Origin: a bacterium
Lineage (GTDB): Bacteria; SAR324; NAC60-12
Direction of reading: 5' to 3'
NCBI GenBank assembly: GCA_965233585.1
Contig: CBDDTI010000731.1
Coordinates: forward strand, 1 to 32,736
Length of the DNA stretch: 32,736 nt
Under the pieces are notes generated by a model. It made no database searches, was not told the origin of the DNA, and was given only the letters and a program-made list of their open reading frames with translations. The translations under genes were made by a program, and so were the position numbers. Each line of letters starts with the position of its first letter. Position 1 is the first letter of the stretch. Below are positions 3,376 to 32,736 of this stretch, piece after piece.

Positions 3376-5138
3376 TACCTTTTTTGGCTTACACCCGGCT
3401 GCTGAAATTCATCCTAATGTAGGTTCTGCTGCTGTCTGCATGGGGTTAAAGATGAGGTTGAATATTAAATGAATCTGGCCTTAATTTACTTAGGGCTACC
3501 CAGTATAGTATTATGTTGCAAGGCTCATCAAGCTAGTTAAAAGGTTTCATTGAGAAAAGTAAATCTGGCTTTCATTGTCCTCGGAAAACTTCCTGAATTC
3601 TTTACTGACCTTCTTCCTGGGACTGCGTCCGCCAGCTGCACGTTATTGTAAAACTCCACATGCAAATTTTAAATTTTTTTGTGGGACAATGACTGCCCCG
3701 AGCAAAAATACCATTCAAGAAACATTTTTCCCTTGTCCATTCTTTCTTTTTTTTTTTAATGAGCTCAGCCAGGAGCGGGACTTTGCTAGGCATTTGCTCT
3801 TCACTTTTCTGCAATTTGCTCTTCACTTTTCTGCCTAAATAAATGGATGATTGACTGAATGAATACATGAATGATTGGTTGAATTATCATTGTCTGCTTT
3901 TATATGCGCTCTGCAAATTATTGTAGTGGTTGTAACTGGGTCGTATGGGTTTGACAGTTTTCAGAAGAGATCCACAAAATCTTTGCTGACCTTCTGTCTG
4001 GCTCTCTGCCCACCTCCTAATCGATGTCCTCACTGTCTGCTTTCAACTGCTGCCTGCAAATGGCCAAAGAGTGTAGTGATTGATTAGGGTCTAGGGTTAA
4101 GGGTGAGGGTTAGGGTTCATGGTTATGAAATCTACATTACTAGGGCTGACTGAGTAAATCACAAATAAGTAGCGATATTGTCTACATCAATTGCACTGTG
4201 CACTGTTTAACTTTCCTGTCAAATAGAGTATTTTGTCAAAAGTGGTATAACTTTCATAATTGTATTTGTCGCTTGTATGTGTTTGTGTTTGTATTTGTAA
4301 CTGTTTGTTTTGACAGTCGCTTGGTGTATATCTCTCTCTCTCTCTCTCTCTCCCTCTCTCTCTCCTCTGTCTCTCTCCCTGTCTCTCTCCCTCTCTCTTT
4401 CTCTCTCTCTCTCTATCTTCTCTCTGTCTTTCGTCTCTCTTTTTGACTGAGCAGTTCCTGTCGTCATGTTCGCTTGAGTCATTTTTTTGTGTCTTGGTTG
4501 TAGGTATTCTTTCGTCATTTCGTCACTTCATGTTGTTTTAAAAGATCTTCCAACTGTTAAAAAAAAAACGTATTTGTATTCGTCTTCACTTTCACAGCAT
4601 TTTTCATTAGACACGATACACATTCACTTTTAACAAAGTTCGGCAAAGCTTTCAGAACACATCAATACAGAACTTCAGCTCTCATTCTTTTTCTTATTGC
4701 ACACTTGCACAGTGTACCGGTATACCCTGTCAACATTGCACTTGCACTTCTTTGAATGTCAGTCTAATAAGTAGAAAACTCTTCTTTCAGATATTTAAAG
4801 CCCTTCCTTACCTTTGCTGGATTGCGGCTGATGACATTGCTGACCTCCTTCTCTAACACTTAGCTCGGTAACTCCGTCTGATCTCTGCAAAGAGAAGAAG
4901 GAAATGGTGGCGGTTACCTAAGTTCTCCTGAGATAATTTCCATGATGTTCTTTACGAAGGATGACACGCATTTTATTACTGTCAAATTATTGTTTCTTTA
5001 TTTTCTCATTGTGGGCTTTCATGAAGGAGACCTCTGTTGGCCTGTGTACTTAAAACAAACCTCAAAACAGAAATAAGCCTAACAACAACAAAAAAATAAC
5101 AAAAACAACAAGAACAAGAACAAGAACAACAACATTAA

Positions 5139-5432
5139 CCCTTTATCGACCAGCCAGTCAAAAGTCGGTCGCCGGCGACCGATAGGTTTAGACAAACACT
5201 GCTTCTTTAATTCTCAACGGATCTCTACAAATAAGATATCGTTGGAAAGGTCTTGTTCTTATCTAAACGTAGATACTTTATTTTCGAAAATCGGACAAGA
5301 AATGACGCTGCTACAGCTGTTTGAAGTGACCTAACTGATCGATTTCGGGGTCGATCGATCGATGAACGTGACTCGCGGCAGCGACTTCGCTCACTGAATT
5401 GCTATGGTAACTCGAAACGTCTTGGAATGTAT
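5139..5432 (-). mobile_element. Truncated, inverted copy of the piggyBac-type MITE (independent insertion)
   Basis: TTAA at 5135-5138 is followed by CCCTTTATCGACC. The segment is the reverse complement of the right half of 1978-2583, including the TCGGTCGCCGGCGACCGA palindrome. Confidence 0.8.
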
Positions 5433-5853
5433 ACTGACCTTCTCTCTCGCTCTCTGCCCGCCTCTAAATCGATGTCCTCACTGTCTGCTTCGAACTGCTG
5501 CCTGCAAACGGACAAGAGTGTAGTGAGTGATACTCACAGTTTTCAAAAAAGAACCATGATATTTTCACTTACCCTCTCTCTCCCTCTCTCTCTCTCTCTG
5601 TCTCTCTATCTCTCTCTGAGTCTTCAACCGCCTGCTGTACCGAACCCTAACCCTGTCCACTTGTGGTAATCCTTCCTTCTAAAACCTAACCTCACTCCTG
5701 TTGGCCCAAATGTCCAAATAGTGTGCTGTTGGAGTTCTGTTGTCTAAAGAATCTTCACAATACAAGTTGTACAACTTTGTAGGTTGTACAAATATTGCAA
5801 GTTATACACCTATCTTCCTTAGATCCCAATGCTTGTAAAACGTTGCAATGCTG

Positions 5854-6970
5854 TCCTGGTGTCATTTTTGGTTCAATTTAAATGAACCATTCACTCTTTT
5901 TCAGAAAATTCTCAGACCTTTCCTACCACATATTCGATGGTATGATTGAGTAATATATTCGATTTTCCTAACCCTAGAAAAATCGCTCAAAGACAAAGAT
6001 GACAGCGAATATGCTAATACCATGACTGGGACAAGTTGTACATGTATGTTTTCCCATTTTCCCTTGGCTTTTCTTTCTGTGTCATCAAACTTTGCCTTGG
6101 CTTACTTCAAAAGCCCACCCTGGTATTATGTCCAGTTTACTTGAGAAAAAAAATAGTTACATTCCCATCCAAACAATTCTGAGAGGTTCTTAATTAACGT
6201 TATGTGCTTTGTTGAAATTTTAGAAACAGCTTGTAGACGTGGCAGGCCTACTGCCATGAATCAGAAAAGTTGTATCTAGTCCAACTTTCGCTGTGCAAGC
6301 ACGTTTTGGTTGTATTATGTGTTAGAATATTGTGTTGTCTTTGTTTGAAAGCCGACCCTGTTGCCAAAAGTCGTGTCTTACAACCTTTCCTTGGCAAGAT
6401 TTTAGAGTTGTATTTTGTCCGCGTTTGCCTTGTGTACCTATGAAAGCCTCATCAGATATCAATTTTGGTTTGCTTTTGACAAACAAAATATCTCCTGGTG
6501 TCATTTTGATTCAATTTAAACAAACCATTCATTGGTTTTTAGACAATTCTCAGACCTTTCCAACAATATATTAGATTTTGCAATCCGTGGAAAAATGGCT
6601 TGAAGACAAAGTAGACTGCGAATATGCCAATACCAGGACCGGAAAAGTTGTACATGTATGTTTTTCCATTTTGCCTTGTCTTTTTTTTTGTCCTCGAACT
6701 TTGCCATGGCTTACTTTAGAAGCCCACCCTGGTATTATGTTCAGTTTCCTTGTGAAAAAATAATTGCATTCCCATGCAGACAATTCTGAGAGGTTCTTAA
6801 TTAACGCTATGTGCTTTGCTGAAATTTTAGAAACAGCTTGTAGACGTGGCAGGCCGACTGCCATGAATCAGAAAAGTTGCATGCCATCCAACTTTCGCTG
6901 TGCAAGCACATTTTGGTTGTAGTATGTCTTCTAATATTGCGCTGTCTATGTTTGAAAGCCGACCCTGTTG
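5854..6970. repeat. Diverged ~640-bp direct duplication (about 1.7 copies)
   Basis: TCCTGGTGTCATTTT..TTCAATTTAAA..AACCATTCA at 5854 and 6493. The shared downstream sequence includes GAAATTTTAGAAACAGCTTGTAGACGTGGCAGGCC. Confidence 0.8.
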
Positions 6971-7589
6971 CCATTTCTGGAAGGCTTTTAACACACAATT
7001 CTTTCCCATTCAGGACAGGCTCAGAGCTTTCCAATGATGACTTGTACTTCACAATTTGTGCAGAAACGGCTTCAATACTTTTTCGCAGTTCCTCTTTTGT
7101 GACTGAGAAAAGTTGTACATGTGTCTTACAACTTTTCCTTGGCAAAAAGTTTTAGTTGTATTTTGTTCACGTTTGCTTTGTGGAGCTTGAAAGCCTCCTC
7201 AGATATTTATTTTGGTTTGCTTTTGATAAACAAAGTATTCCTTTGCAAACAATTTTCAGAGATTTTCACTGTTGTATTAGATGTTGAAATCCATTAAGAA
7301 AAAGCTTGAGAACGTTTTCATGCACATGACATGATTTCAGAAAGTTGCACGTCTTGTAACCTTGCATCCATGCTCATTGTATTTTAATTTTATAGTTTCC
7401 CGGGTCCTTCTTTGAAAACCGGCCCAGTTGCAATTTGTACCTGGCTTTTGAAACAAACTGTACACCATTAAGTACACGCTAAGAGCTGTTCAATGATGCA
7501 TTGGATTTGTATAAATCAAATATATACTGCCTGAATAGATCTTCAGGCTCATTCTTCCCCCACTTCTTGTTGGCGAATATTTTCAAATT

Positions 7590-7997
7590 ATGGCTCGAAC
7601 CAAGCAAACAGCTACAAAATATGTTGGTCCAAAAAAGGCCCCTAAATTGAAAGCCAAGGCCTCTCGGAAGAGTGTCTCCGCCACTGGTGGTATCAAGAAG
7701 CCCCATCGTTACCGTCCCGGTACCGTGGCTCTTCGTGAGATTCGTCGGTACCAGAAGTCAACTGAGCTCTTCATCCGCAAGTTGCCCTTCCAGCGTCTTG
7801 TTCGCGCGATTGCCCAGGATTTCAAGCTCGGTCTTCGCTTCCAGTCGTCGGCTGTCACGGCTCTTCAGGAAGCCAGCGAGGCTTATCTAGTGGGTCTTTT
7901 TGAAGACACCAATTTGTGCGCCCTCCACGCTAAGCGTGTGACCATAATGCCAAGGGACATGCAACTGGCGCGGCGCATACGAGGCGAGCGTTCCTAA
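7590..7997 (+). CDS. H3: Divergent histone H3 variant (canonical/H3.2-derived core, remodelled N-terminal tail), intronless
   Basis: 135-aa [11 protein letters not shown]...[24 protein letters not shown]...KLPFQRLVR...[35 protein letters not shown]. Full length with ATG and TAA, no frameshift. Confidence 0.95.
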
Positions 7998-8866
7998 ACT
8001 TTCCTTTTAGTATTATTTTTTATGAACTATTCTTGTTGGTGCTTAAATTAATGTTTATGTTGTGCCTTCTTTTTTTTATAATAGTACATCTCTTTTTCCC
8101 TTTCTCTCATGTCTGTATAAAATAATCGTAAACTTTCCCTTTTTGTCACCTTTGTTGAGTATTTTGTCCATGTTCAACTTGTCTGCTTGTCTGTTTGAAA
8201 GCTTTTAGTACTAAATATAGTCCTATCAAAATCGACCAGAGTGCTTTGAAAGCTTTTTAAATAAATCTATCAATTCTGATCGGCTTTTGGTAAACAAAGT
8301 CCCCACCCCTGGGTTAGGGTTTTCAGAGCTTTCCAATGCTGTCTTGGATGTTGAAATTCATTAAGTAACACCCTGAAGACGTTTTAACGCCCACTGAGAT
8401 GATTCCCTAACCCTAGCCACAGTCAATGTTCCAGTGAAACGTAGAGAAGTACCCCTTTTGAAAATGTAGAGGTTAATATTGAAAATTGAGAAAGTAATGT
8501 TGAAAAAATCTCTAGTAGTTAGTAGCTGTGCTGCTGGTTCTCACAGTTTAAAAGTCAACGAAATTATGGTTGTGCTCAAGTTAATTAAGGATAGGGCTGT
8601 AGTGTTAAGGTGAGGAAATGTTGAAAAAAATTGCAGTAGTTAGTAGTTGTGCTACTATGTCTATCAGTTTAAAGGTCAATAAACTATCGTTAGAGTTACG
8701 CTAGTTGTTACCAAGGTTAAGGTTAGGGAAGTTTGTCTAAAGCTTAGGGGAAGGGTAGTTTGCAATGGGCGAAAGTGAGAGGGTTTTTGTGTTGAAAACA
8801 GTTACATGTATGTGCAATGTGAAATTGGTATGTACAATGTGAAATTGGGTGAAACAGTCAGGAAAG

Positions 8867-11287
8867 TTACATCAGCTTTCGCTGCTTCTTGGCCAGGTTC
8901 CTCCACTTGTCCCTGCAGTCTTGCTCCGTGCGGAAGTTGCGGGCACAAGTGGGCGGAACCGGCCTGAAAACGCTCGGCGCAGGCGTTCGTCTTCTAGCGA
9001 GCGGATACCGTTGCAATATTTCGGCCTCTTCCTCTGGGCTGAATGGTTTTCTTTTTGGCTTTGCTGTGTCAGCCAGAGTTCTCCACCGTAGGAATGGTGA
9101 CGATTGCGTCGTTGGCCTCTTCTGGTGAGGATCCGTTCTCTTGTAAAACAAAGAAGCTTGGGTCGGAATTTGTTCTTCTACTTCTTCTTCTTCTTGTTCG
9201 TCTTCTGTCTCTTCATCCTCCTCTTCCCATTCATCTTCGTCTTCTTGATCTTCTTCTTCGTCACTGCATTCGTCTTTGTCATCTTCTTGTTGTTCTTCTT
9301 CTTCCTCCTCTTCTTCTTCTTCTTCTTGTTCGTCTTCTTCATCTTCTTCTTGTTCTTCTTCTTCTTCTTGTTCTTCTCCTTCTTTGTCTTCGCCTTCGTC
9401 TCTGTGTTCTTTTTCTTGGGTTTGCTCTGGTCCTTTTTCTCCTTCTCCTCCTTCTTTCTGCCGACCGTGCTTGTCGGTGAGAACGATCGGTTGCAGACGA
9501 CCTTGGTTGGGTTGAATTGTTACCGTGTCATCGTCCTCACTCTCTTCATCGGAATCATCATCGATGACATATCGTCGGCCTTTCTTTGGAGTGCTGCTAG
9601 TCCCGCTGTCTTCGTCAGATTCTGTTATTGTTCTGTCCAGCCTGTGCTTTCCTTTGCGTACTGGAGTCCGCGGGTTTGCCTTTTGGATTGTCTTCTTCTC
9701 CTTCTTCTTCTTCTTGGGTGGGAGCTCTTGTTCATCATCGCTTGAGATGATGATGATTTGAGGGACGAACGGGTCCTTCGTGTCGTGCTCCAGGAGCTGG
9801 TGCGAGAAGGCCTCACGTGCTCGCTTTAAGCTTTTGAAGGCCTTCTCTGCCACTGAGTCCTGGAGCAAGCGACGGTAATTTTTGTCAGCTGTTGACTCTG
9901 AATGGCTCATCAGCCTAGCCGCATGGCTCTTTCCGCTGTCGTCGAGCGTTAGGCAAGATGCGGCCGTGAGCTTCCTCGAAAGAGTTGCATTTGGGATCCT
10001 CTGTCTGGTATCCTTTCCAAAGCGCATCGAGTGCATGTGATGGTGTTTGCTTTTCACTTCCTTGCCGGTGGTGGTGACCAGAAAGTTGTCGGAGGTTGAC
10101 TTTGGGCGGATCCGTGATGCCCACGTTTCCGCCCAGCTTTGGAGCTGCTTCTCCATGAACAGCTTGGCCCGTCCTTGGCGCTTGGTTTTATGGCGACGGA
10201 CCTTGACTCTCAGAGTTCCTCCTTTCCTCCTTTGCCTTGCGGTGCCTTCTTTGAACTCTGTCAATGTCATGTTGGTGACGGCACCAACACGCTGGCCATT
10301 GCCCAGAGTCAGATGTACGAGGAGACATCGCATGTAGAACAAGGTCTCAGTAAATGTGAGGAAGTGCCCTGCTTGGGCCTTCCTCTGCAACACCGTCATT
10401 TTCTGCGCCGTTTGTCTGTGGGAGAGAATGTCGTCGATAGCCGACGGTAGTATGTCAAACTCCTCGTCCTCCTCCGCGGCCAGGGACTGTTGCTCTCTTG
10501 TGTCCTGCTGGAACGTGATTTTAATCGCCTTCAGCTTGGCCATTGTGGATTTCACCACCTCCTGGTCAAACTGGTCATTGCTCCCCATCCAATGGAAGAG
10601 CATGACCAGTGAATCCATCCTCGTGACCATGCCGTGTGGTCCGGTTCCTGACACCTTCTGGTAGACATTGAGTTTCTCCTCAATGGCAGTTGCGTTGAAG
10701 AATTTCTGCATGTCGACTTTCTCGTTGTCCAGCCAGTAGGCCATTTGAGCAATTTGGCGAGTGTACAAGTCGCAGGTGGACTTGCTGAGGGCCTTGCGTT
10801 TGTCCACCCGCAATGGCAGCCAGCGGGTGAACTCGCGCAGGGGGCCCTCGTCGACGCTGTGCTTTTTGTTGAGCCCCGCCATCTTGACTTTATGTGCCTG
10901 TTCGGCCGCCGTGCGATGCGTAAAGTGTCCAGGCACTGCCTGGACACGGTACGTGCCACCGGCCCACTTGCTGCAACCTTCGCCTGATGGCCCGGGATCA
11001 CTTGCGTTTTGGGTTGGTGGCGTTCCATTGGTGCCGGTTGATTCTTGGTCGTTGCTGCTGGTCGAGGTGGTTGGTACTGTGTTGGTGAAGAACGAGGCAA
11101 TGTTAGCCGTACGCGTGTTGTGTTGAGCATACGCTTCCTTCACTCGCTTCTGCAGGTCGACTTGCTGGGCCATGGTAAGGCCCTTGTGGTGCCGGTGGAT
11201 GTGCCGGCCCAGACGGTCCGTGGTGATGCCGCACTCACACTTGTAGACCCGTCTGGACATGGCTGGTCGTGGGTCTGTAAACCACAT
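8867..11287 (-). CDS. Tyrosine recombinase (Crypton/CryptonV-like) with N-terminal Cys/His finger, acidic tract and C-terminal Myb/SANT-like domain
   Basis: Open ~806 codons. The track start at 11290 is TTG; ATGs are at 11287 and 11260. Catalytic set in ORF-track numbering: GQR334VG..NMT..EF, HK368T, T436LSR439K, MSH463S...NY472. N-terminus CECGITTDRLGRHIHRHH; C-terminus RKPFSPEEEAEIL...RTEQDCRDKWRNL. Visibly more GC-rich than the flanks. Confidence 0.88.
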   Translation of the reverse strand: MWFTDPRPAMSRRVYKCECGITTDRLGRHIHRHHKGLTMAQQVDLQKRVKEAYAQHNTRTANIASFFTNTVPTTSTSSNDQESTGTNGTPPTQNASDPGPSGEGCSKWAGGTYRVQAVPGHFTHRTAAEQAHKVKMAGLNKKHSVDEGPLREFTRWLPLRVDKRKALSKSTCDLYTRQIAQMAYWLDNEKVDMQKFFNATAIEEKLNVYQKVSGTGPHGMVTRMDSLVMLFHWMGSNDQFDQEVVKSTMAKLKAIKITFQQDTREQQSLAAEEDEEFDILPSAIDDILSHRQTAQKMTVLQRKAQAGHFLTFTETLFYMRCLLVHLTLGNGQRVGAVTNMTLTEFKEGTARQRRKGGTLRVKVRRHKTKRQGRAKLFMEKQLQSWAETWASRIRPKSTSDNFLVTTTGKEVKSKHHHMHSMRFGKDTRQRIPNATLSRKLTAASCLTLDDSGKSHAARLMSHSESTADKNYRRLLQDSVAEKAFKSLKRAREAFSHQLLEHDTKDPFVPQIIIISSDDEQELPPKKKKKEKKTIQKANPRTPVRKGKHRLDRTITESDEDSGTSSTPKKGRRYVIDDDSDEESEDDDTVTIQPNQGRLQPIVLTDKHGRQKEGGEGEKGPEQTQEKEHRDEGEDKEGEEQEEEEEQEEDEEDEQEEEEEEEEEEEQQEDDKDECSDEEEDQEDEDEWEEEDEETEDEQEEEEVEEQIPTQASLFYKRTDPHQKRPTTQSSPFLRWRTLADTAKPKRKPFSPEEEAEILQRYPLARRRTPAPSVFRPVPPTCARNFRTEQDCRDKWRNLAKKQRKLM

Positions 11288-11535
11288 CAATGGAAAGCCA
11301 ACTGATCAGCGAATTGTTCGTGGTTAAGAATTCTACATTACCAAGGTTGACTGAGTCTATCGAAAATAAATGGCGATATTGTCAAATCAATTGCACTGTG
11401 CACTGTTTAACCTATCGTTTAAATTTAGTATTTTGTCAAAAGTGGCATAACTTTCATAATTGTATTTCTCGCTCGTGTGTATTTGTTTTTGTATTTTATC
11501 TGTTTGTTTTAACAGTCGTTTGGTGTAGATCTCTA

Positions 11536-14932: not shown

Positions 14933-15538
14933 CCCTTTATCGACGGATTTTTCAGCTTCTAGAAGGCTCAAGTTTGGCCTTCGCACTCAAAAAGCAATAT
15001 ATCAACAACTACAAGTGCTACCACCACGTTAAACACACCGTTGGAAAGGTCTTCTCATTGCGCATCCAACGACAAAAAGTATTACGAAAGACCTTTTCAA
15101 ACGCCTAAGATACATAGTCCTGAGTGAAGGAAGTCGCCTTCCAAAAACTGAAACAGAAAATCCAATCGTTCTTTGTCAGTGGAGCAGCTATGAAGTTCGT
15201 TCTTTCGCCAGTCGACAGCTTGGATCCTTGCCGTCATTTGCTGTATACATTTTTGGACGATTTAAGTTACCATAGTAATGGAGTGAGCGAAGTCGCGGCC
15301 GCAAGTCACGCTCGTCGATCGATCGAGCGCCAAATCGATCAGTTGGGTCACTTCAAACGGCCGTAGCGGCGTCATTTCTTGTTCGATTTTCAAAAACAAA
15401 ATATCCGCGTTTAGATAATGAAAAGACCTTTCCAACGATATCTTATTTATAAAAATCCATTGAGAAATATTTACACAGTGGTAATCTAAACTTATCGGTC
15501 GCCGGCGACCGATTTTTGACTGGCCCGTCAATAAAGGG
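14933..15538 (+). mobile_element. 606-bp piggyBac-type MITE, duplicated with the large unit
   Basis: TTAA-CCCTTTATCGACGG ... CCGTCAATAAAGGG-TTCA. Same length and same flanks as 1978-2583. Confidence 0.85.
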
Positions 15539-15784
15539 TTCATAGAGTATTTTGTCAAAAGTGGTATAACTTTCATAATTGTATTACTCGCTTATGTGTT
15601 ACTTTATTTGTAGTTGTATCTGTTTGCTTTGACAGTTGCTTGGTGTAGATGTCTCTCTCTCTCTCCCTCTTTAAAGAGAGTATTTTGTCAAAAGTGATAT
15701 AACTTTCATAATTGTATTTCTCGATAGTGTGTAACTGTGTTTGTATTAATTTTGTATCTGTTTGTTTTGACAGTCGCTTGGTGT

Positions 15785-19586: not shown

Positions 19587-20033
19587 AAGTATTACGAAAG
19601 ACCTTTTCAAACACCTAAGATACATAGTCCTGAGTGAAGGAAGTCGCCTTCCAAAAACTGAAACTTAAATCCAATCGTTCTTCGTCTGTGGAGCAGCTAT
19701 GAAGTTCGTTCTTTCGCCAGTCGACAGCTTGGATCCTTGCCGTCATTTGCTGTATACATTTCTAGACGTTTCAAGTTACCATAGTAATGGAGTGAGCGAA
19801 GTCGCGGCCGCAAGTCACGCTCGTCGATCGATCGAGCGCGACATCGTTCAGCTGGGTCACTTCAAACGGCCGTAGCGGCGTCATTTCTTGTTCGATTTTC
19901 AAAAACAAAGTATCCACGTTTAGGTAATGAAAAGACCTTTCCAACGATATCTTATTTATAAAAATCCATTGAGAAATATTTACACAGTGGTCGTCTAAAC
20001 TTATCGGTCGCCGGCGACCGATTTTTGACTGGC
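19587..20033 (+). mobile_element. Internal fragment of the piggyBac-type MITE lacking both TIRs
   Basis: Matches about 2122-2569 (AAGTATTACGAAAGACC ... ATTTTTGACTGGC). Confidence 0.8.
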
Positions 20034-20328
20034 AAAACGGACCTACTACGTACAATGAGCACTTTACTGCGTACACCATTATGACATTAGTGTGTGCTGG
20101 TTGATTGCACGAGGTGCAGTGAGTACGTTGTACAGCTTTTTGAAGCATGGACATGACTGGTGTGTATGCTTGCATGTTTGAGGCTGTGTGAGAGGTCACA
20201 ACTGTCTCGAGCCATCTTAAGATGTAGTGGTTGTTACTGGGCTGTATTGGTTTGACCGTTTTCAGAAAAGATCCATGAAATCTTTACTGACCTTCTCTCT
20301 GGCTCTCTGCCCACCTCCTAATCGATGT

Positions 20329-20700
<372 letters not shown>

Positions 20701-21056
20701 TTCCTTCTAACACCTAACCTCACTTCTGTTGGCCCGCTGTCCAAATGTTGCTCTTGATCGACTTCTGTGGTCTAAAGAACCTACACAATACTAGTTTTAC
20801 AACTTATTAGGTTGTAAACATATTGCAAGTTGTACACCTATTTTCCTTAGATTCCAATGCATTCTCTTCTTGTATTTTTTTTTTTTTTTTTTTGCCGAAT
20901 GCGGGCTTCCAATAGCGTTTTTCATTTTAAAAAGCTGTGATAAGGCACAATGAAAGATGGTTCTGTTCTCAATTAACTGTTCGTCTTGTTTTCAGGCCCA
21001 ATGGCCTCCATGAGAAAGTTGTAGGTCTTTTAATTTCATTGTAATTTTCTTTGGAC

Positions 21057-21301
21057 TGGCTAATACCATGACTGGGAAGAGTTGTACATGTATGTTTTCC
21101 CATTTTGCCTTGACTGAGAAAAGTTGTGTCTTACAACTTTTCCTAACCCTAAGATTTTATAGTTGTGTTTTGTCCACATTGGCTAATACCATGACTGGGA
21201 AGAGTTGTACATGTATGTTTTCCCATTTTGCCTTGACTGAGAAAAGTTGTGTCTTACAACTTTTCCTTGGCAAGATTTTATAGTTGTGTTTTGTCCACAT
21301 T
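21057..21301. repeat. 123-bp direct duplication
   Basis: TGGCTAATACCATGACTGGGAAGAGTTGTACATG occurs at 21057 and 21180. Confidence 0.88.
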
Positions 21302-21314
21302 TGCCTTGTGTGGC

Positions 21315-22467
21315 TTTGAAAGCCTGCCCAGATATCAATTTTAGTTGGCTTTTGATAAACAAAATATCCCCTTGCAAATAATTTTCAGTTTAGCTTTCCA
21401 CTGTTGTATTGGATGTTGAAATCCATAAAGAATAAGTGTGAAAACGTTTTCACGCACACTGACATGATTGCAGAAAGTTGTACATCTTGTAACCTTGCAT
21501 CCATGCTCATTGTACTATGATTTTATAGTTTCCCGTGTCCATCTTTGAAAGCCTGCCCAGATATCAATTTTAGTTGGCTTTTGATAAACAAAATATCCAC
21601 TTGCAAAGAATTTTCAGAGCTTTCCACTGTTGTATTGGATGTTGAAATCCAAAAAGAAAAAGTTTGAAAACGTTTTCACGCACACTGACATGATTGCAGA
21701 AAGTTGTACATCTTGTAACCTTGCATCCATGCTCATTGTACTATGATTTTATAGTTTCCCGTGTCCATCTTTGAAAGCCTGCCCAGATATCAATTTTAGT
21801 TGGCTTTTGATAAACAAAATATCCCCTTGCAAATAATTTTCAGTTTAGCTTTCCACTGTTGTATTGGATGTTGAAATCCATAAAGAATAAGTGTGAAAAC
21901 GTTTTCACGCACACTGACATGATTGCAGAAAGTTGTACATCTTGTAACCTTGCATCCATGCTCATTGTAGTATGATTTTATAGTTTCCCGTGTCCATCTT
22001 TGAAAGCCTGCCCAGATATCAATTTTAGTTGGCTTTTGATAAACAAAATATCCCCTTGCAAAGTATTTTCAGAGCTTTCCACTGTTGTAATGGATGTTGA
22101 AATCCATAAAGAATAAGTGTGAAAACGTTTTCACGCACACTGACATGATTTCAGAAAGTTGTACGTCTTGTAACCTTGCATCCATGCTCATTGTAGTATG
22201 ATTTGACAGTTTCCCGTGTCCATCTTTGAAAGCCTGCCCAGATATCAATTTTAGTTGGCTTTGATAAACAAAATATCCCCTTGCAAAGTATTTTCAGAGC
22301 TTTCCACTGTTGTATTGGATGTTGAAATCCATAAAGAAAAAGTGTGAAAACGTTTTCACGCACACTGACATGATTTCAGAAAGTTGTACGTCTTGTAACC
22401 TTGCATCCATGCTCATTGTAATATGATTTTACAATTTCCCGTGGCCATCTTTGAAAGCCTGCCCAGT
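21315..22467. repeat. ~225-229-bp tandem satellite, about 5 copies
   Basis: GAAAGCCTGCCCAG anchors at 21318, 21547, 21773, 22002, 22228 and 22453. A single unit is present in copy A at about 7190-7425. Confidence 0.92.
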
Positions 22468-23384
22468 TGCAATTCTTATCTCGTTTTGACACACACTGTA
22501 CACCATTAATTACACGTTGAGAGCTGTTCAATTATGCATTTGATTTATATAATTAAGGTAGAAACTGCCTGAATAGATGTTCAGGCTCATGCTTTTGACT
22601 GAAAAAAGTTGTATGTCTTACAACTTTTCCTTGGCAAGGATTAAAGTTGTCTTTTGTGCATGTTCGCCTTGTCTGCCTTTGGAAGCCTGCTCAGATCGAC
22701 CAATCTAGCCGTTCTGGCTGGCTTTTGAAAAACAAACTCTCCTTGCTGAGGATTTTCAGAGCTTTCCAATGCTGTCTTGGATGTTGAAATCCATTAAGTG
22801 ACGCCTGAAGATTTTTCACGCCCAGTGACATGATTTCAGAAAGTTGTACGTCTTGTAAACTGGCCTTGACAAATATGTTTGCTGTAGTATGCTTCCCAAG
22901 TGTGCCCTGTCTATAGTTTTAAATACCGCCCTGTTTTTATTTCTAGTTTCCTTTTGACACAAGATATCACCATACAGAACATGCTCATGGCTTTCCAATG
23001 ATGTATTGATTTTACAACTCGGGTAAAAACTGCCTGAGTAGGTTTTCAGGCTCAGTTTCCTGACTGACTAAAGATTTATGTCTCCGAAATTCTGCATGTC
23101 CCTAGGGTTGAGGTGGAGGAGCTGAGCTTAGGACCACATCTTTTCTCCCAAAGCTTATTGTCCCAATCAGGTTGTTATTTGTCCATTTGTGGTGTTACCC
23201 TGTCCCGTTGGGTGTGAGGATGTCCATTCGTGGCTCTAAGCGAAGGTGAATAATAATTTAAAATGTCCAGATGTTGTGCTTAGCAATGACTGGGACCACA
23301 GCAATCGTCCCGGACAATCGTGATTGTCCTGTTGTGGTGTTTATTTGAGCCTAGGACGACATTTTGTCGTACCAATTACTGGTC

Positions 23385-24890
23385 CTTTGTCCAATTGTGG
23401 TACCAGGCAAACTTAGCACAACAAAAAATACTGGTGGTTTGTCCAATTGTGGTTTAGGCAAACTTAATACCACACAATGATGTCCCCAAAACTGGTGCCT
23501 TGTCCAAGTGTGGTCTCAGGCAAACTTAACACCACAACCCTAAGTCCCACTGACTAGTGCTTTGTCCAATTGTGGTCTCAGGCAACCTTAAAACCACATT
23601 ATCTTGTCCCACTACCTGGTGTTTTGTCCAATTGTGGTCTCAGGCAAACTTAGCACCAAAAAATTGTTGTCCCGATAACTAATGCTTTGTCCAATTGTGG
23701 TCTTAAGCAACCTTAACACCACATATTCACGTCCCACTTACAAGTGCTTTGTCCAATTGTGGTCTCAGGCAACCTTAGAACCACAATATCTTGTCCCACT
23801 ACCTGGTGCTTTGTCCAATTGTGGTCTCAGGCAAACTTAGCACCCAAAAATTGTTGTCCCGATAACTAGTGCTTTGTCCAATTGTGGTCTTAGGCAAACT
23901 TAACACCACAACCCTAAGTCCCACTGACTAGTGCTTTGTCCAATTGTGGTCTCAGGCAACCTTAAAACCACAATATCTTGTCCCACTAGCTGGTGCTTTG
24001 TCCAATTGTGGTCTCAGGCAAACTTAGCACCAAAAATTTGTTGTCCCGATAACTAGTGCTTTGTCCAATTGTGGTCTTAGGCAACCTTAACACCACATAC
24101 TCACGTCCCACTTACTAGTGCTTTGTCCAATTGTGGTCTCAGGCAAACTAAGAACCACAATATCTTGTCCCACTAGCTGGTGCTTTGTCCAATTGTGGTC
24201 TCAGGCAAACTTAGCACCCAAAAATTGTTGTCCCGATAACTAGTGCTTTGTCCAACTGTGGTCTTAGGCAACCTTAACACCACATATTCACGTCCCACTT
24301 ACTAGTGCTTTGTCCAATTGTGGTCTTAGGCAAACTTAGAACCACAATATCTTGTCCCACTAGCTGGTGCTTTGTCCAATTGTGGTCTCAGGCAAGCTTA
24401 GCACCAAAAAATCGTTGTCCCAATACCTGGTGCTTTGTCCAATTGTGGTCTTAGGCAACCTTAACACCACATATTGATGTCCCACTGACTTGTGCTTTGT
24501 CCAATTGTGGTCTTAGGCAAACTTAACACCACATATTGATGTCCCACTGACTTGTGCTTTGTCCAATTGTGGTCTTAGGCAAACTTAACACCACGTATTG
24601 ATGTCCCACTGACTTGTGCTTTGTCCAATTGTGGTCTTAGGCAAACTTAACACCACATATTGATGTCCCACTGACTTGTGCTTTGTCCAATTGTGGTCTC
24701 GGGCAAACTTAGAACCACAATATCTTGTCCCACTACCTGGTGCTTTGTCCAATTGTGGTCTTAGGCAAACTTAACACCACATGTTTACGTCCCACTGACT
24801 AGTGCTTTGTCCAATTGTGGTCTCAGGCAAACTTAGAACCACATTCTCTGGTCCCACTGACTGGTGCTTTGTCCCATTGTGGTGTTTGGT
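23385..24890. repeat. 62/63-bp satellite, ~24 units, with a 187-bp trimeric higher-order structure and an internal dyad
   Basis: Core GTGCTTTGTCCAATTGTGGTCT(C/T)AGGCAA(A/C)CTTA..ACC recurs with spacings 62, 62, 63. The variable halves recur in the order ABC DBC ABC DBC DBC EEEE. Confidence 0.93.
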
Positions 24891-25494
24891 TTAAGCTAAC
24901 ACCACAAGTTATGTCCCAGAAAAGTTTTTGATTTGTCCAGATGTGGTGTTTGGGAAAACTACGGACCACATTTCGAGTCCCGGGACAAGAAAATTGTCCA
25001 GATGTGGTGCTAAGCTGTTGTGCTAGGTGTGCCAAGGACAACAATTTCTGTCCCGGGACGTGAAATTGTCCCGGGACAAAATTTGTGGTGTTAGGATGCT
25101 CATCTGAACACCACAATTGGACGATGTGGTCTAATGTTCCGAAGATGTGGTCTAAGTTTCCTAAGATGTGGTTAGGGTTAGGCCTAACCACATTGTCCCG
25201 GTTTTTGGCCTGGGTTGTCCCGATTTTTACCTGGGTTGTCCCAGATATTTCTGGGTTGTCCCTAAATATTTCTGGGTTGTCCCAGATATTTCTGGGTTTC
25301 TAAATTTTTTAGGTTTGTCCCGTTGTTGTGCTAGGTTGTCCCATCGTTGTGTTAGGTTGTTTTTTTTTTTTTTTAAATTGTCCTCTTGTGGTGCTAGGTT
25401 GTTGCAGTGTGGTTTTAGGCTGGCAATCTTCAATCTGTCCAGTTGTGGTGCTAGGTTGATTTTGAATGTGTCCCGTTGAGGTGCTAGGCTGTCC

Positions 25495-26238
25495 CAATGT
25501 GGTGTTAGGCAAACTTAGAACCACACAAAAATGTCCCAGCAACTGGTTCTTTGTCCAAATGTGGTGTTAGGCAAACTTAGAACCACACAAAAATGTCCCA
25601 GCAACTGGTTCTTTGTCCAAATGTGGTGTTAGGCAAACTTAGAACCACACAAAAATGTCCCAGCAACTGGTTCTTTGTCCAAATGTGGTGTTAGGCAAAC
25701 TTAGGACCCCATAAAAATGTCCCAGCAACTGGTTCTTTGTCCAAATGTGGTGTTAGGGAAACTTAGGACCCCATAAAAATGTCCCCGTAACTGGTTCTTT
25801 GTCCAAATGTGGTGTTAGGCAAACTTAGGACCCCATAAAAATGTCCCAGCAACTGGTTCGTTGTCCAAATGTGGTGTTAGGCAAACTTAGGACCCCATAA
25901 AATTGTCCCCGTAACTGGTTCTTTGTCCAAATGTGGTGTTAGGCAAACTTAGGACCCCATAAAAATGTCCCAGCAACTGGTTCTTTGTCCAAATGTGGTG
26001 TTAGGCAAACTTAGGACCCCATAAAATTGTCCCCGTAACTGGTTCTTTGTCCAAATGTGGTGTTAGGCAAACTTAGGACCCCATAAAATGTCCCCGTAAC
26101 TGGTTCTTTGTCCAAATGTGGTGTTAGGCAAACTTAGGACCCATAAAAATGTCCCCGTAACTGGTTCTTTGTCCAAATGTGGTCTTAGGCAAACTTAGTA
26201 CCACATAATGATGTCCAATAACTGGTGCTTTGTCCATT
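25495..26238. repeat. Second, more homogeneous 62-bp satellite block, ~12 units
   Basis: GTGGTGTTAGGCAAACTTAG(A/G)ACC(A/C)CA.AAAAATGTCCC.G.AACTGGTTCTTTGTCCAAAT at 25561, 25623, 25685, etc. Confidence 0.93.
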
Positions 26239-26520
26239 TTTATGTGCTGGGATAGAAATTGTACCCCTTTAGAAAATGTAGAAGTTAATATTGAAAATTG
26301 AGAAACTAAAGAAGTACCCCTTTTGAAAATGTAGAAGTTAATATTGAAAATTCAGAAAGTAATGTTGAAAAAATCTCTAGTAGTTAGTAGCTGTGCTGCT
26401 GGTTCTCACAGTTTAAAAATCAACGAAATTATGGTTAGGGTGGTTGTTCTCAACGGTAATTGGTCTTAGGATATGTTGAAAAATTGTAGTAGTTAATAGT
26501 TTTGCTACTTTTTTCTATCA

Positions 26521-26720
26521 GGTCAATAAAATTATGGTTAAAGTTATTTAAAGGTCAAAAAGTATGGTTAGAGTTTTTAAAGGTCAGTAAAATTATGGTT
26601 TGAGTTCTTTAAAGGTCAATAAAATTATGGTTATAGTTATTTAAAGGTCAATAAAATTATGGTTATAGTTATTTAAAGGTCAATAAAATTATGGTTATAG
26701 TTATTTAAAGGTCAAAAAAA
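26521..26720. repeat. ~32-bp AT-rich minisatellite, ~6 copies
   Basis: AAAGGTCAATAAAATTATGGTTATAGTTATTT at 26611, 26643, 26675 and others. A single related unit lies at ~8671 in copy A. Confidence 0.9.
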
Positions 26721-26827
26721 TTACTTCAAGTTCGATCTCCGGACTGGTCAGAACGTTTTTCCCAAGTCCGCTCCGCCGATCGAAGTCTATCCAGTAAGGG
26801 TAGCTGCGAATGGATCGCTGTTTATCG

Positions 26828-27566
26828 CATTCGGTCCGCAGCCAGGCACTCGTGCTCCTTGTGTCTTCCTGGTACGTGGTCTTGATGGCCTTGATCTTGG
26901 CCATTGTTGATTTCACCATCTCCTTGTCAAACTGGTCATTGCTCCCTATCCATGTGAGGAGCATGCCCAGTGAGTCCATACAGGTGACCAGGCCGTGCGG
27001 TCCAGTGGTGGACACCTTTTGGCAGAGATTGAGCTTCCCCTCGATCACTGTTACATCAAGAAACTTCTCCAGGTCCACTTTGTCGCTGTCCAGCCAGTAG
27101 GCCATTTCTGCAATTTGGCGGCGGTAGAGATCACAGGTTGACTTGCTTAGGACACATCAACCCGCAATGGCAGCCAGCGGGTGAACTCGAGCATGGGCCC
27201 TCTTCGGTGCTGTGCTTCTTCTCAAGCCAAGGCGCCTTGACTCCATGTGCTCGGTCGCAGTACGATGCGTAAAGTGGCTGGGCACTGCCTTGACACGGTA
27301 CGTGCCACCGAACAACTTGCTGCAACCTTCGCCTGGTTTCCAGGGACCACTTGCGTCGTGGGTTGGGGGCGTTCCATTGCTGCCGGTTTAATGTTGGCCG
27401 TTGCTGGTTGAGGTAGTTGGTACTGTCTTGGTGAAGAACGAGGCAATGTTACCCGTCTGCACCGTTGTTTGGCACCATCGGACATAGTCGATGGCCGATG
27501 GTGCGAGGTCGAACTCCTCGTCTAAGCCTGTCTGGACGTGACTGGTCTTGAGTCTGTAAAATACAT
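26828..27566 (-). pseudogene. Decayed, rearranged 5' half of the tyrosine recombinase gene (no catalytic domain)
   Basis: MYFTDSRPVTSRQA* vs MWFTDPRPAMSRRVYK; NIASFFTKTVPTTSTSN; MAYWLDSDKVDLEKF...GSNDQFDKEMVKSTMAKIKAIK. It has an early stop and frameshifts, and homology ends near residue 272. Confidence 0.9.
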
Positions 27567-27839
27567 CAATGGAGAGCCAACTGATTAGTGAATTGTTCAT
27601 GGTAATGAAATATACATTACTAGGGTTGACTGGGTCAATCACAAATAAGTATCGATATTGTCTGCATCAATTGCACTGTCCACTGTGTAACCTTCCTCTT
27701 AAATAGAGTATTTTGTCAAAGTGGTATAACGTTTATCATTGTATTTCTCGCTTGTGTATTTGTGATTGTATTTGTATGTGTTTGTTTTGATAGTGGCTTG
27801 GTGTAGATCTCTATCTATCTATCTATCTATCTCTATGTC

Positions 27840-31809: not shown

Positions 31810-32736
31810 TTTAGGGGTAGGGTTAGGTTTAGAGTTAGTGGTTAGAGTTAGGGTAAGAGGTTGGGTCCATGGTTACAAAATCTACATCACTAAGGTTGAC
31901 TGTGTCGATCACATTTAAGTGGCGATATTGTCTACATCAATAGAGTTACAGTTAGGTTTACGGTTAGGGTTAGGGGTTTAGAGTTTATGGTTAGACCTAG
32001 CGTTAAGGTTAGGTTTGACTGTTGTGAAATCTACATTACTAGGGTTGACTGTGTCAATCACAATTAAGTGGCGATATTGTCTACATCAAGAGGGTTACGG
32101 TTAGGTTTAGGGTTAGCGTTAGGGTTTGGGGTTTAGAGTTTATGGTTAGAGTTAGGGTTAAGGTTAGGGTTAGGTTTAGGGTTAGCGTTAGGGTTTGGGG
32201 TTTAGAGTTTATGGTTAGAGTTAGGGTTAAGGTTAGGTCTCACTGTTGTGAAATCTACATTACTAGGGTTGACTGTGTCAATCACAATTAAGTGGCGATA
32301 TTGTCTACATCAAGAGGGTTAGGGTTAGGTTTAGGGTTAGCGTTAGGGTTTGGGGTTTAGAGTTTATGGTTAGAGTTAGGGTTAAGGTTAGGGTTAGCGT
32401 TAGGGTTTGGGGTTTAGAGTTTATGGTTAGAGTTAGGGTTAAGGTTAGGGTTAGGTTTAGGGTTAGCGTTAGGGTTTGGGGTTTAGAGTTTATGGTTAGA
32501 GTTAGGGTTAAGGTTAGGGTTAGGTTTAGGGTTAGCGTTAGGGTTTGGGGTTTAGAGTTTATGGTTAGAGTTAGGGTGAAGGTTAGGGTTAGGTTTAGGG
32601 TTAGCGTTAGGGTTTGGGGTTTAGAGTTTATGGTTAGAGTTAGGGTGAAGGTTAGGGTTAGGTTTAGGGTTAGCGTTAGGGTTTGGGGTTTAGAGTTTAT
32701 GGTTAGAGTTAGGGTTAAGGTTAGGTCTCACTGTTG
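31810..32736 (+). repeat. Degenerate TTAGGG array with the 69-bp higher-order unit, running off the window end
   Basis: Same 69-bp unit and ~60-bp module as at 1-1035. Confidence 0.9.

Follow-up and report, generated by a model that had tools for sequence, protein, structure and literature searches.

In positions 1 to 32,736 of contig CBDDTI010000731.1 (assembly GCA_965233585.1), the whole stretch of 32,736 nucleotides referred to here as the window, we found an intact gene for a tyrosine recombinase (YR) within a 5.8-kb block, L1, which occupies the exact position of a 33-bp interstitial TTAGGG-type tract in the surrounding ~2-kb repeat units. This placement is new relative to an earlier, sequence-only reading of the same DNA. 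A divergent histone H3 gene lies in the same block, convergent with the YR gene, and 869 bp separate their stop codons. The sequence-only reading had noticed the two intact genes at a spacing of ~870 bp, and both open reading frames (ORFs) are indeed real. It had further proposed that the YR belongs to a mobile element carrying its own H3; this part is not supported, as a sister block in the window, L2, which shares both junctions and the satellite and has a decayed YR, contains no H3 remnant even at E<=10. On balance, we favour the view that a Crypton-like YR gene sits at a telomere-type tract and that the neighbouring H3 gene is a separate, later event and not a component of the element. We read it as separate because it is absent from L2, its breakpoints lie inside a satellite monomer, and it has no histone stem-loop. 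The H3 is most likely a lineage-specific solitary variant ("orphon") that happens to adjoin the YR gene and, as things stand, the YR and H3 "system" is a neighbourhood rather than a demonstrated unit.

The recombinase and its family

The 807-aa ORF is a tyrosine recombinase. From stop to stop its frame runs for 812 codons, and the runner-up among all six frames of the window has 214. Because the acidic tract of the protein swamps a word search with the whole sequence, residues 100-560 were used as the HMMER query; phmmer in a full HMMER scan returned 264 relatives at E<=1e-3, and a word search with the family profile recovered five proteins (sources ENA and Logan). The family profile matched archaeal XerA at 4.8e-7, and XerD was matched too. 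An AlphaFold (AF2) model built on a 17-sequence family alignment had a mean pLDDT of 77.6, 225 of its residues reaching at least 90, and the top matches of this model in the PDB by Foldseek were XerA, lambda Int, XerH and Cre (probability 1.00, E 2e-4 to 1e-3). All eight matches at E<=1e-3 were recombinases and both domains were covered; the YR is thus predicted by the model to have the two-domain Cre/Xer/lambda-Int fold. R334, H367-K368-T369, R439, H463 and Y472, which include the catalytic Arg-Lys-Arg-His-Tyr (R334, K368, R439, H463 and Y472), are each at least 90% conserved in the 17-sequence alignment. In the numbering of the 461-aa part these are R235, H268-K269-T270, R340, H364 and Y373, of which R235, H268 and K269 are conserved in a set of 113 sequences as well. 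The nearest clusters in Atlas are Eukaryota, mostly Chordata with one Mollusca cluster. The YR belongs to an unnamed, mainly animal, multi-copy eukaryotic family without reverse transcriptase (RT).

The recombinase domains are preceded by a zinc-finger-like Cys/His motif and followed by an acidic tract and, at the C-terminus, a helical domain (Table 1). Both the Cys/His motif and the helical domain are common to relatives; the acidic tract, which is encoded by a TTC/GAA-type repeat at 9173-9417, is missing from distant ones. The three closest C-termini have ...RT..DC.DKWRN... in common, and a profile of these three gave marginal matches to Reb1 (0.0055), GT-1 (0.022), a plant telomere-repeat-binding protein (0.057) and TBP1 (0.86). 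At its C-terminal end the family profile matched c-Myb at E ~1e-3. The modelled domain has a pLDDT of 72.8, and a fold search with it gave nothing below E=2.5, the best matches being homeodomains and Myb. Given marginal profile E-values and no significant fold match, we call the C-terminus Myb-like. The description of the protein as YR-acidic-Myb was therefore right as to the recombinase and the acidic tract, and its Myb part is weak (profile E 1e-3 to 0.06). A telobox assignment of the C-terminus was considered on the same evidence and rejected as unproven.

The best reading of this RT-less, single intronless YR ORF is that it encodes the recombinase of a Crypton-like DNA element, and the earlier placement of the protein in the Crypton class stands in this sense. 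The ORF comes without RT, RNase H or methyltransferase: RVT was matched by none of 86 further window ORFs, and RVT, DUF3504 and GCR1_C by none of 25 and none of 113 family members. Phage_integrase was matched by 2 of the 25 and 19 of the 113, and DUF3435, weakly, by 1 of the 113. In particular, DUF3504, which marks CryptonA, is found neither in the YR protein nor in these relatives, and the GCR1_C of CryptonF is absent from both, with a Myb-like domain in the same C-terminal position instead. As for DIRS, Ngaro and PAT elements, we found no RT/RNase H ORF and no split or inverted terminal repeats. In functional terms the YR gene may fairly be called "Crypton-class"; it is neither CryptonA nor CryptonF.

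A block in place of a telomere-type tract

The window is best explained as subtelomere-type repeat DNA, in which a short G-strand TTAGGG-like tract lies between successive ~2-kb units. Long TTAGGG-variant arrays are confined to the window ends (74-1034 and 31811-32725); tandem units of ~1.6 kb and ~2 kb with (TC)n and (AAC)n tracts fill the middle, and G+C ranges from 36 to 55% in 1-kb windows. The whole window has 104 TTAGGG against 13 CCCTAA, so that its telomere-type DNA runs in a single orientation. Each repeat unit opens with a conserved motif of ~75 bp (GTGAAATCTACATTAC... or GTGAAATCTACATTACTAGGGTTGACTGAGTCAATCAC...), of which there are 21 copies between 123 and 32248, for example at 4125, 17098, 19085 and 27967. 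The 40 bp 5' of this motif are at least 30% telomere-like in 17 of the 21 copies, TC-rich in two, and in the remaining two are a block end, the 5' flank of a YR copy. With 17 of 21 flanks telomere-like, the repeat units look like elements connected head to tail via telomere-type repeats.

Alignments of both sides gave the layout of an ordinary ~2-kb unit as ...GTAGTGATTGAT, then the 33-bp TAGGGTCTAGGGTTAAGGGTGAGGGTTAGGGTT, then CATGGTTATGAAATC..., and L1 replaces the 33 bp between the same flanks. Its left junction joins GTAGTGAGTGAT to ACTCAC and its right junction GCGAATTGTT to CGTGG. From left to right, L1 consists of a satellite with periods of 226, 455 and 610 bp, the H3 gene, the same satellite again, a 296-bp segment and the YR gene. 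The sequence-only reading had placed the genes in a tandem unit embedded in TTAGGG DNA; the block does stand at the telomere-type tract of a ~2-kb unit, but the genes are not directly inside TTAGGG arrays. The link that it suggested to telomeric-type repeats is made more precise by the replaced tract; specificity for this target rests on a single event. The 296-bp segment between inverted telomere-like 16-mers is common to L2 over 8436-8698 (26302-26546 in L2), and may represent either a short insertion in telomere-type DNA or an ancient fold-back. In the mechanism that we propose, the YR element would excise as a circle and re-integrate by conservative site-specific recombination, and its YR might be directed to TTAGGG-like DNA by the C-terminal helix bundle.

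The sister block L2 has lost the 3' 60% of its YR. Over 202 codons, the intact YR and the L2 remnant differ by a dS of 0.40 with a dN/dS of 0.40. L2 also contains 3.3 kb of extra 62/187-bp satellite between its 226-bp satellite and the YR remnant. This extra satellite forms 62-bp arrays at 23430-24883 (with a 187-bp higher order) and 25490-26236, and is absent from L1. The units flanking L1 and L2 have no obvious shared derived changes that would separate duplication from independent insertion, and are uninformative in this respect.

The solitary histone H3 gene

The H3 ORF is identical to canonical H3 in 114 of 137 aligned columns (83%), and its best PDB matches are H3.2 and H3.1 at 8e-67. 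It keeps the H3.1/H3.2-type features, namely the SAVT patch (SAVx), S96, C110 and every tail lysine. It is neither an H3.3 nor a CENP-A: it has SAVT rather than AAIG, and its fold is collinear with that of H3.2, with nine substitutions. The context of K9 has changed from ARKS to ATKY, and residues 10-25 (the K14-K23 region) are rewritten with an in-frame length change. Changes affect 13 of 38 positions in the tail against 9 of 97 in the core, as counted from the HMMER alignment (binomial p=0.0023, Fisher p=0.0012), which agrees with the earlier description of a remodelled H3. Since a drifting pseudogene should not spare the fold, a spared fold with a changed tail suggests that the ORF encodes a constrained variant. 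R8 and S10 matter for the writers and readers of K9, which recognize ARKS, and the altered K9 context may affect methylation or HP1 binding.

Relative to L2, the H3 insertion amounts to ~565 bp, and its breakpoints fall within a satellite monomer. The TATA box and nearly all of the H3 5' leader are satellite sequence in the alignment with L2. The H3 segment has no other match in the window. No histone 3' stem-loop (RF00032) was found by Rfam, either at the gathering score or at E<=10 over 7400-8900, and marks of retroposition around H3 (poly(A), stem-loop) were likewise not found. The sequence-only reading had seen no H4, H2A or H2B nearby, and there is no other histone in the 86 further frames, a search that spliced genes would escape. 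Each long (455-bp) monomer of the satellite has a hairpin-forming inverted repeat (AAAAGTTGTA...TACAACTTTT), at 7096-7148 and also at 22597-22640, and it is the left arm of this hairpin that has been deleted where H3 was inserted.

Among 8000 scored H3 proteins, the 120 best were ordinary H3s with 53-90% identity, those above 84% covering part of the query only. None of these 120 has the altered tail; an exact look-up found neither the H3 nor the YR of the window in the collection, and the absence of its own H3 means that this says little about other loci. In the sequence of events that we propose, an ORF-only copy of a replication-type H3 would have been inserted, later than the block, into one of the monomers that make up the satellite on the 3' side of the YR gene, and may borrow the TATA box of that monomer for its expression. 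The histone fold would then have been under constraint while the tail was rewritten. On the YR strand there is no AATAAA or ATTAAA between the YR stop and the H3 stop (8867-8000); the YR and H3 transcripts, if both are made, therefore probably overlap.

Copies and ends of the element

Fragments of YR with ~90% identity are present on two other contigs, P0273 on one and P0003 and P0004 on the other. P0273 and P0003 break at the identical residue, after NATLSR (which holds the catalytic Arg), and continue into the same unrelated sequence, either as a multiplied insertion/deletion derivative or by segmental duplication. A third close copy is internally rearranged, and the YR of the window is the sole intact copy among those examined. 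The sequence-only reading had named YR copies lacking H3 as evidence that would count against H3 cargo; the one copy examined in this respect, the decayed one in L2, lacks it. On a further contig, P0008 is a predicted protein in which a copy of the N-terminal part of the decayed subfamily is fused to CCHC zinc-knuckle-like sequence (compare window 26701-27105), and zf-CCHC is matched by 1 of the 113 family members; this suggests a retroelement inserted beside a YR copy.

Alignment had been proposed as the way to define the termini, and both block junctions could be mapped within the window. We found no terminal inverted or long direct repeat within 5400-11500 and no clear common 4-6-mer in the junction alignments, and the true ends of the element are uncertain.

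Other features of the window

The coordinates of the features are collected in Table 1. For the Pfam scan, 125 stop-to-stop frames of at least 70 aa were reduced to 86 by removing 38 low-complexity frames and the YR frame. These 86 contained no transposon domain and no other credible domain, within the same limit for spliced genes. A zf-CCCH_9 match at 21014-21280 (28.4 bits, 0 stretches passing) was rejected as spurious, being translated satellite repeat, and the remaining Pfam matches were low-complexity noise. Rfam found no RNA gene in the window at the gathering score. An ORF of 104-142 aa is kept in three copies of the ~1.6-kb unit (2307-2621, 15262-15576 and 19771-20199, minus strand) and has no Pfam match; its conservation probably reflects merely recent duplication. 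The two ends of the window resemble each other (~86% over ~580 bp). TTAGGG-variant DNA at 468-750 and 32093-32725 forms a 69-bp higher-order repeat, with 98% matches in the left array.

Table 1. Features of the window, with positions counted from its first nucleotide.
Feature	Position	Strand	Remarks
33-bp interstitial telomere-type tract, example of an unoccupied site	4085-4117	+	between ...GTGATTGAT and CATGGTTATGAAATC...; junction alignments
Block L1, 5,787 bp	5532-11318		same flanks as an ordinary unit; replaces a 33-bp telomere-type tract
226/455-bp satellite monomers 5' of H3	7089-7584		related ~610-bp repeats back to ~5760
TATAAA	7510-7515	+	75 bp 5' of the H3 ATG, in sequence homologous to the 226/455-bp monomer; motif only
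H3 insertion segment, ORF and ~155 bp of 3' sequence	7585-8150	+	absent from L2; alignment with 22510-22720
Solitary divergent H3 ORF, 135 aa and stop	7590-7997	+	Pfam Histone E=1.8e-43
Same satellite monomer, resuming past the H3 insertion	8150-8404		L2 alignment
AATAAA	8260-8265	+	263 nt past the H3 stop; motif
296-bp segment between inverted telomere-like 16-mers	8403-8730		TTCCCTAACCCTAGCC at 8403-8418 (C-strand), GGTTAAGGTTAGGGAA at 8715-8730 (G-strand)
YR ORF, 807 aa, intact, single exon	8867-11290	-	ATG at 11287 directly after TTG at 11290
YR C-terminal Myb/homeodomain-like helical domain	8870-9040	-	ends ...RTEQDCRDKWRNLAKK; common to relatives P0009 and P0005
YR acidic Glu/Asp-rich low-complexity tract	9125-9622	-	degenerate trinucleotide repeat
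YR core-binding and catalytic domains, residues ~128-504	9779-10909	-	alignment, profile, model
YR N-terminal Cys/His zinc-finger-like motif (YKCECG...HIHRHH)	11183-11248	-	CxxC...HxxxxH alignment of relatives; no Pfam match
Sister block L2 (approximate)	20386-27597		same junctions, same order, 226-bp satellite at 21314-22466, decayed YR, no H3
Decayed YR remnant, residues 54-286 only	26785-27477	-	58.7% aa identity, one in-frame stop, 16 gap columns

Alternative explanations

Several findings weigh against our reading. The YR protein itself matches no Pfam family at E<=0.1, hence not Phage_integrase, and the box-II His of HxxR in the R-H-R-Y tetrad is Thr436 (ATLSR), in line with a family-wide consensus ATxxRK that aligns to HVLR of XerA. 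L1 and L2 share both junctions, so that a single insertion and a later duplication of the unit would account for their position equally well. The YR ATG is ~30 bp from the right junction; the YR promoter must therefore lie in the flanking repeat unit and, with its promoter outside, L1 as delimited may not be the mobile unit. No empty orthologous site, circle junction or terminal direct repeats were found in the junction and repeat analysis. The close YR copies elsewhere are all truncated, and their common break after NATLSR fits segmental duplication as well as transposition. As to the histone, the skew between tail and core may partly reflect alignment choices in the tail, where two alignments differ, and its absence from one old, decayed block copy is compatible with a younger subfamily that gained H3 as cargo.

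One alternative, which we regard as rather unlikely, is that there is no active element at all: the YR-satellite block was fixed once in a subtelomeric repeat and has since passed between chromosome ends only by unequal exchange and segmental duplication, the YR survives as a relic or has been co-opted by the host, and the H3 is a drifting orphon pseudogene. It would account for the junctions and collinear internal order shared by L1 and L2, for the two close YR copies with the same truncation point on different contigs, for the fragmentary state of every YR copy except the intact one in the window, and for an H3 without a promoter of its own, a stem-loop or partner histone genes. It is harder to square with the long YR frame, in which all conserved catalytic residues are kept, as this would be hard without selection at a dS of 0.40, or with the dN/dS between the two YR copies of the window. 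Furthermore, the H3 substitutions avoid the fold (p=0.002), and the frame is intact despite 22 replacements and in-frame indels. Another alternative redraws the limits of the mobile unit, which would start at the telomere-like tract at 8715-8731, take in the YR gene to its right and extend into the flanking ~2-kb unit, the source of the promoter, leaving H3 and satellite outside; the TTAGGG-flanked ~2-kb units would be its non-autonomous derivatives, which recombination within telomere-type repeats had lined up head to tail. We consider this quite unlikely, as the homology of L1 and L2 extends left of 8715 and the repeat units are without recognizable coding capacity. Points that speak for it are the closeness of the YR ATG to the unit junction, the telomere-like sequence before 17 of the 21 unit-start motifs, as expected for tract-joined units, and the tract itself, which lies ~135 bp past the YR stop with the G-strand orientation of the rest of the window (104 versus 13).

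That same tract stands between the YR gene and H3, so that H3 may be outside the mobile unit, and together with the inverted-repeat-bracketed segment it counts against the cargo idea of the sequence-only reading. There, YR, satellite and H3 move together as a single Crypton-type element with telomere-type repeats as its insertion site, and its ARKS-less H3 gives the element a different chromatin state, for instance one that withstands H3K9 methylation and HP1 binding. Both genes do lie within one 5.8-kb block that replaces an interstitial telomere tract, their ORFs are intact when the rest of the window is non-coding repeat, the H3 fold is constrained with the tail around K9 rewritten, and an AATAAA without a stem-loop means that H3 could be expressed outside S phase. 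Nevertheless, L2 has the same ends and satellite with no H3 remnant, the H3 interrupts a satellite monomer as a discrete, ORF-only piece, and no Crypton carrying a histone surfaced in the literature searched. The lack of such an H3 among the best 120 of 8000 scored proteins adds weakly to this, because the H3 of the window is itself missing from the proteins searched. We judge the cargo idea very unlikely. Its boldest form, to which we give hardly any weight, is that an undescribed animal Crypton-like lineage with zinc finger, YR and Myb-like domain integrates into TTAGGG tracts through site-specific recombination and builds subtelomeric arrays, and that one active subfamily captured a K9-rewritten, anti-silencing H3. 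Taken together, these considerations leave us leaning towards a Crypton-like YR gene at a telomere-type tract beside an independently inserted H3.

Comparison with known systems

Crypton DNA transposons were reportedly described by Goodwin et al. in 2003. Like Cryptons, the YR of the window is a single intronless ORF that comes without reverse transcriptase and, as far as 5400-11500 shows, without long terminal repeats; its copy number is low, its copies are mostly decayed, and its boundaries are hard to define. According to the accessible text of the Crypton survey (Kojima & Jurka 2011, PMC3212892), these elements combine YR with GCR1_C and have 4-6-bp terminal direct repeats and low copy numbers; "Myb" is not mentioned in that text. 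To judge from it, an extra DNA-binding-type domain C-terminal to the YR is a further likeness, to CryptonF, where this domain is GCR1_C. In contrast to Cryptons, the YR of the window matches neither DUF3504 (CryptonA) nor GCR1_C, has Thr for the box-II His, and has no identified 4-6-bp terminal direct repeats; its block stands in place of a telomere-type tract and has a large satellite array inside.

In the accessible portions of the reports on them (PMC10104507, PMC9156397, PMC13465315), the Starships of fungi are giant YR-mobilised elements with a DUF3435 "captain" and host-derived cargo genes, and on this basis they supply the one well-documented precedent among eukaryotes for such cargo. 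Unlike Starships, the block here has 5.8 kb, DUF3435 is confined to the single weak match in the family, and the status of H3 as cargo is unsupported. Nothing relevant on Cryptons that carry a histone, have a Myb domain or target telomeres came up in the open literature searched, including the accessible portions of PMC3212892 and PMC13465315, with Repbase and subscription journals outside this search.

The block also invites comparison with telomere-associated elements, as it stands at telomere-type repeats and the units around it are separated by short telomere tracts. TRAS and SART of Bombyx and telomere-associated Penelope-like elements are found at or in telomere-type repeats, which they reach with reverse transcriptase and endonuclease or by way of free ends. 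Here, by contrast, the gene encodes a tyrosine recombinase, and the case for specificity depends on a single site of insertion. Histone orphons, or solitary variants, are single core-histone genes outside a cluster, with lineage-specific substitutions. The H3 of the window resembles them in its position outside a cluster, the missing 3' stem-loop, a polyadenylation-type signal and lineage-specific substitutions. It differs from typical orphons in being unusually divergent for an H3.2 type, with changes concentrated around K9-K23, and in being an ORF-only piece in a satellite monomer beside a recombinase gene.

Implications

The H3 gene matters only if its protein is made and if it is recurrent with YR. 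In that case, an H3 that keeps the K4, K27 and K36 contexts without ARKS at K9 would offer a natural means of probing how heterochromatin is targeted. Should the captured-histone scenario prove true, improbable as we find it, nucleosomes bearing this H3 would resist H3K9 methylation and HP1 silencing, and the H3 would be a transposon-encoded anti-silencing histone. YR-type DNA elements in animals are rare and poorly delimited, and an intact YR exactly at an interstitial telomere tract is a testable case of target choice. The YR element may, in addition, show how subtelomeric repeat arrays get built.

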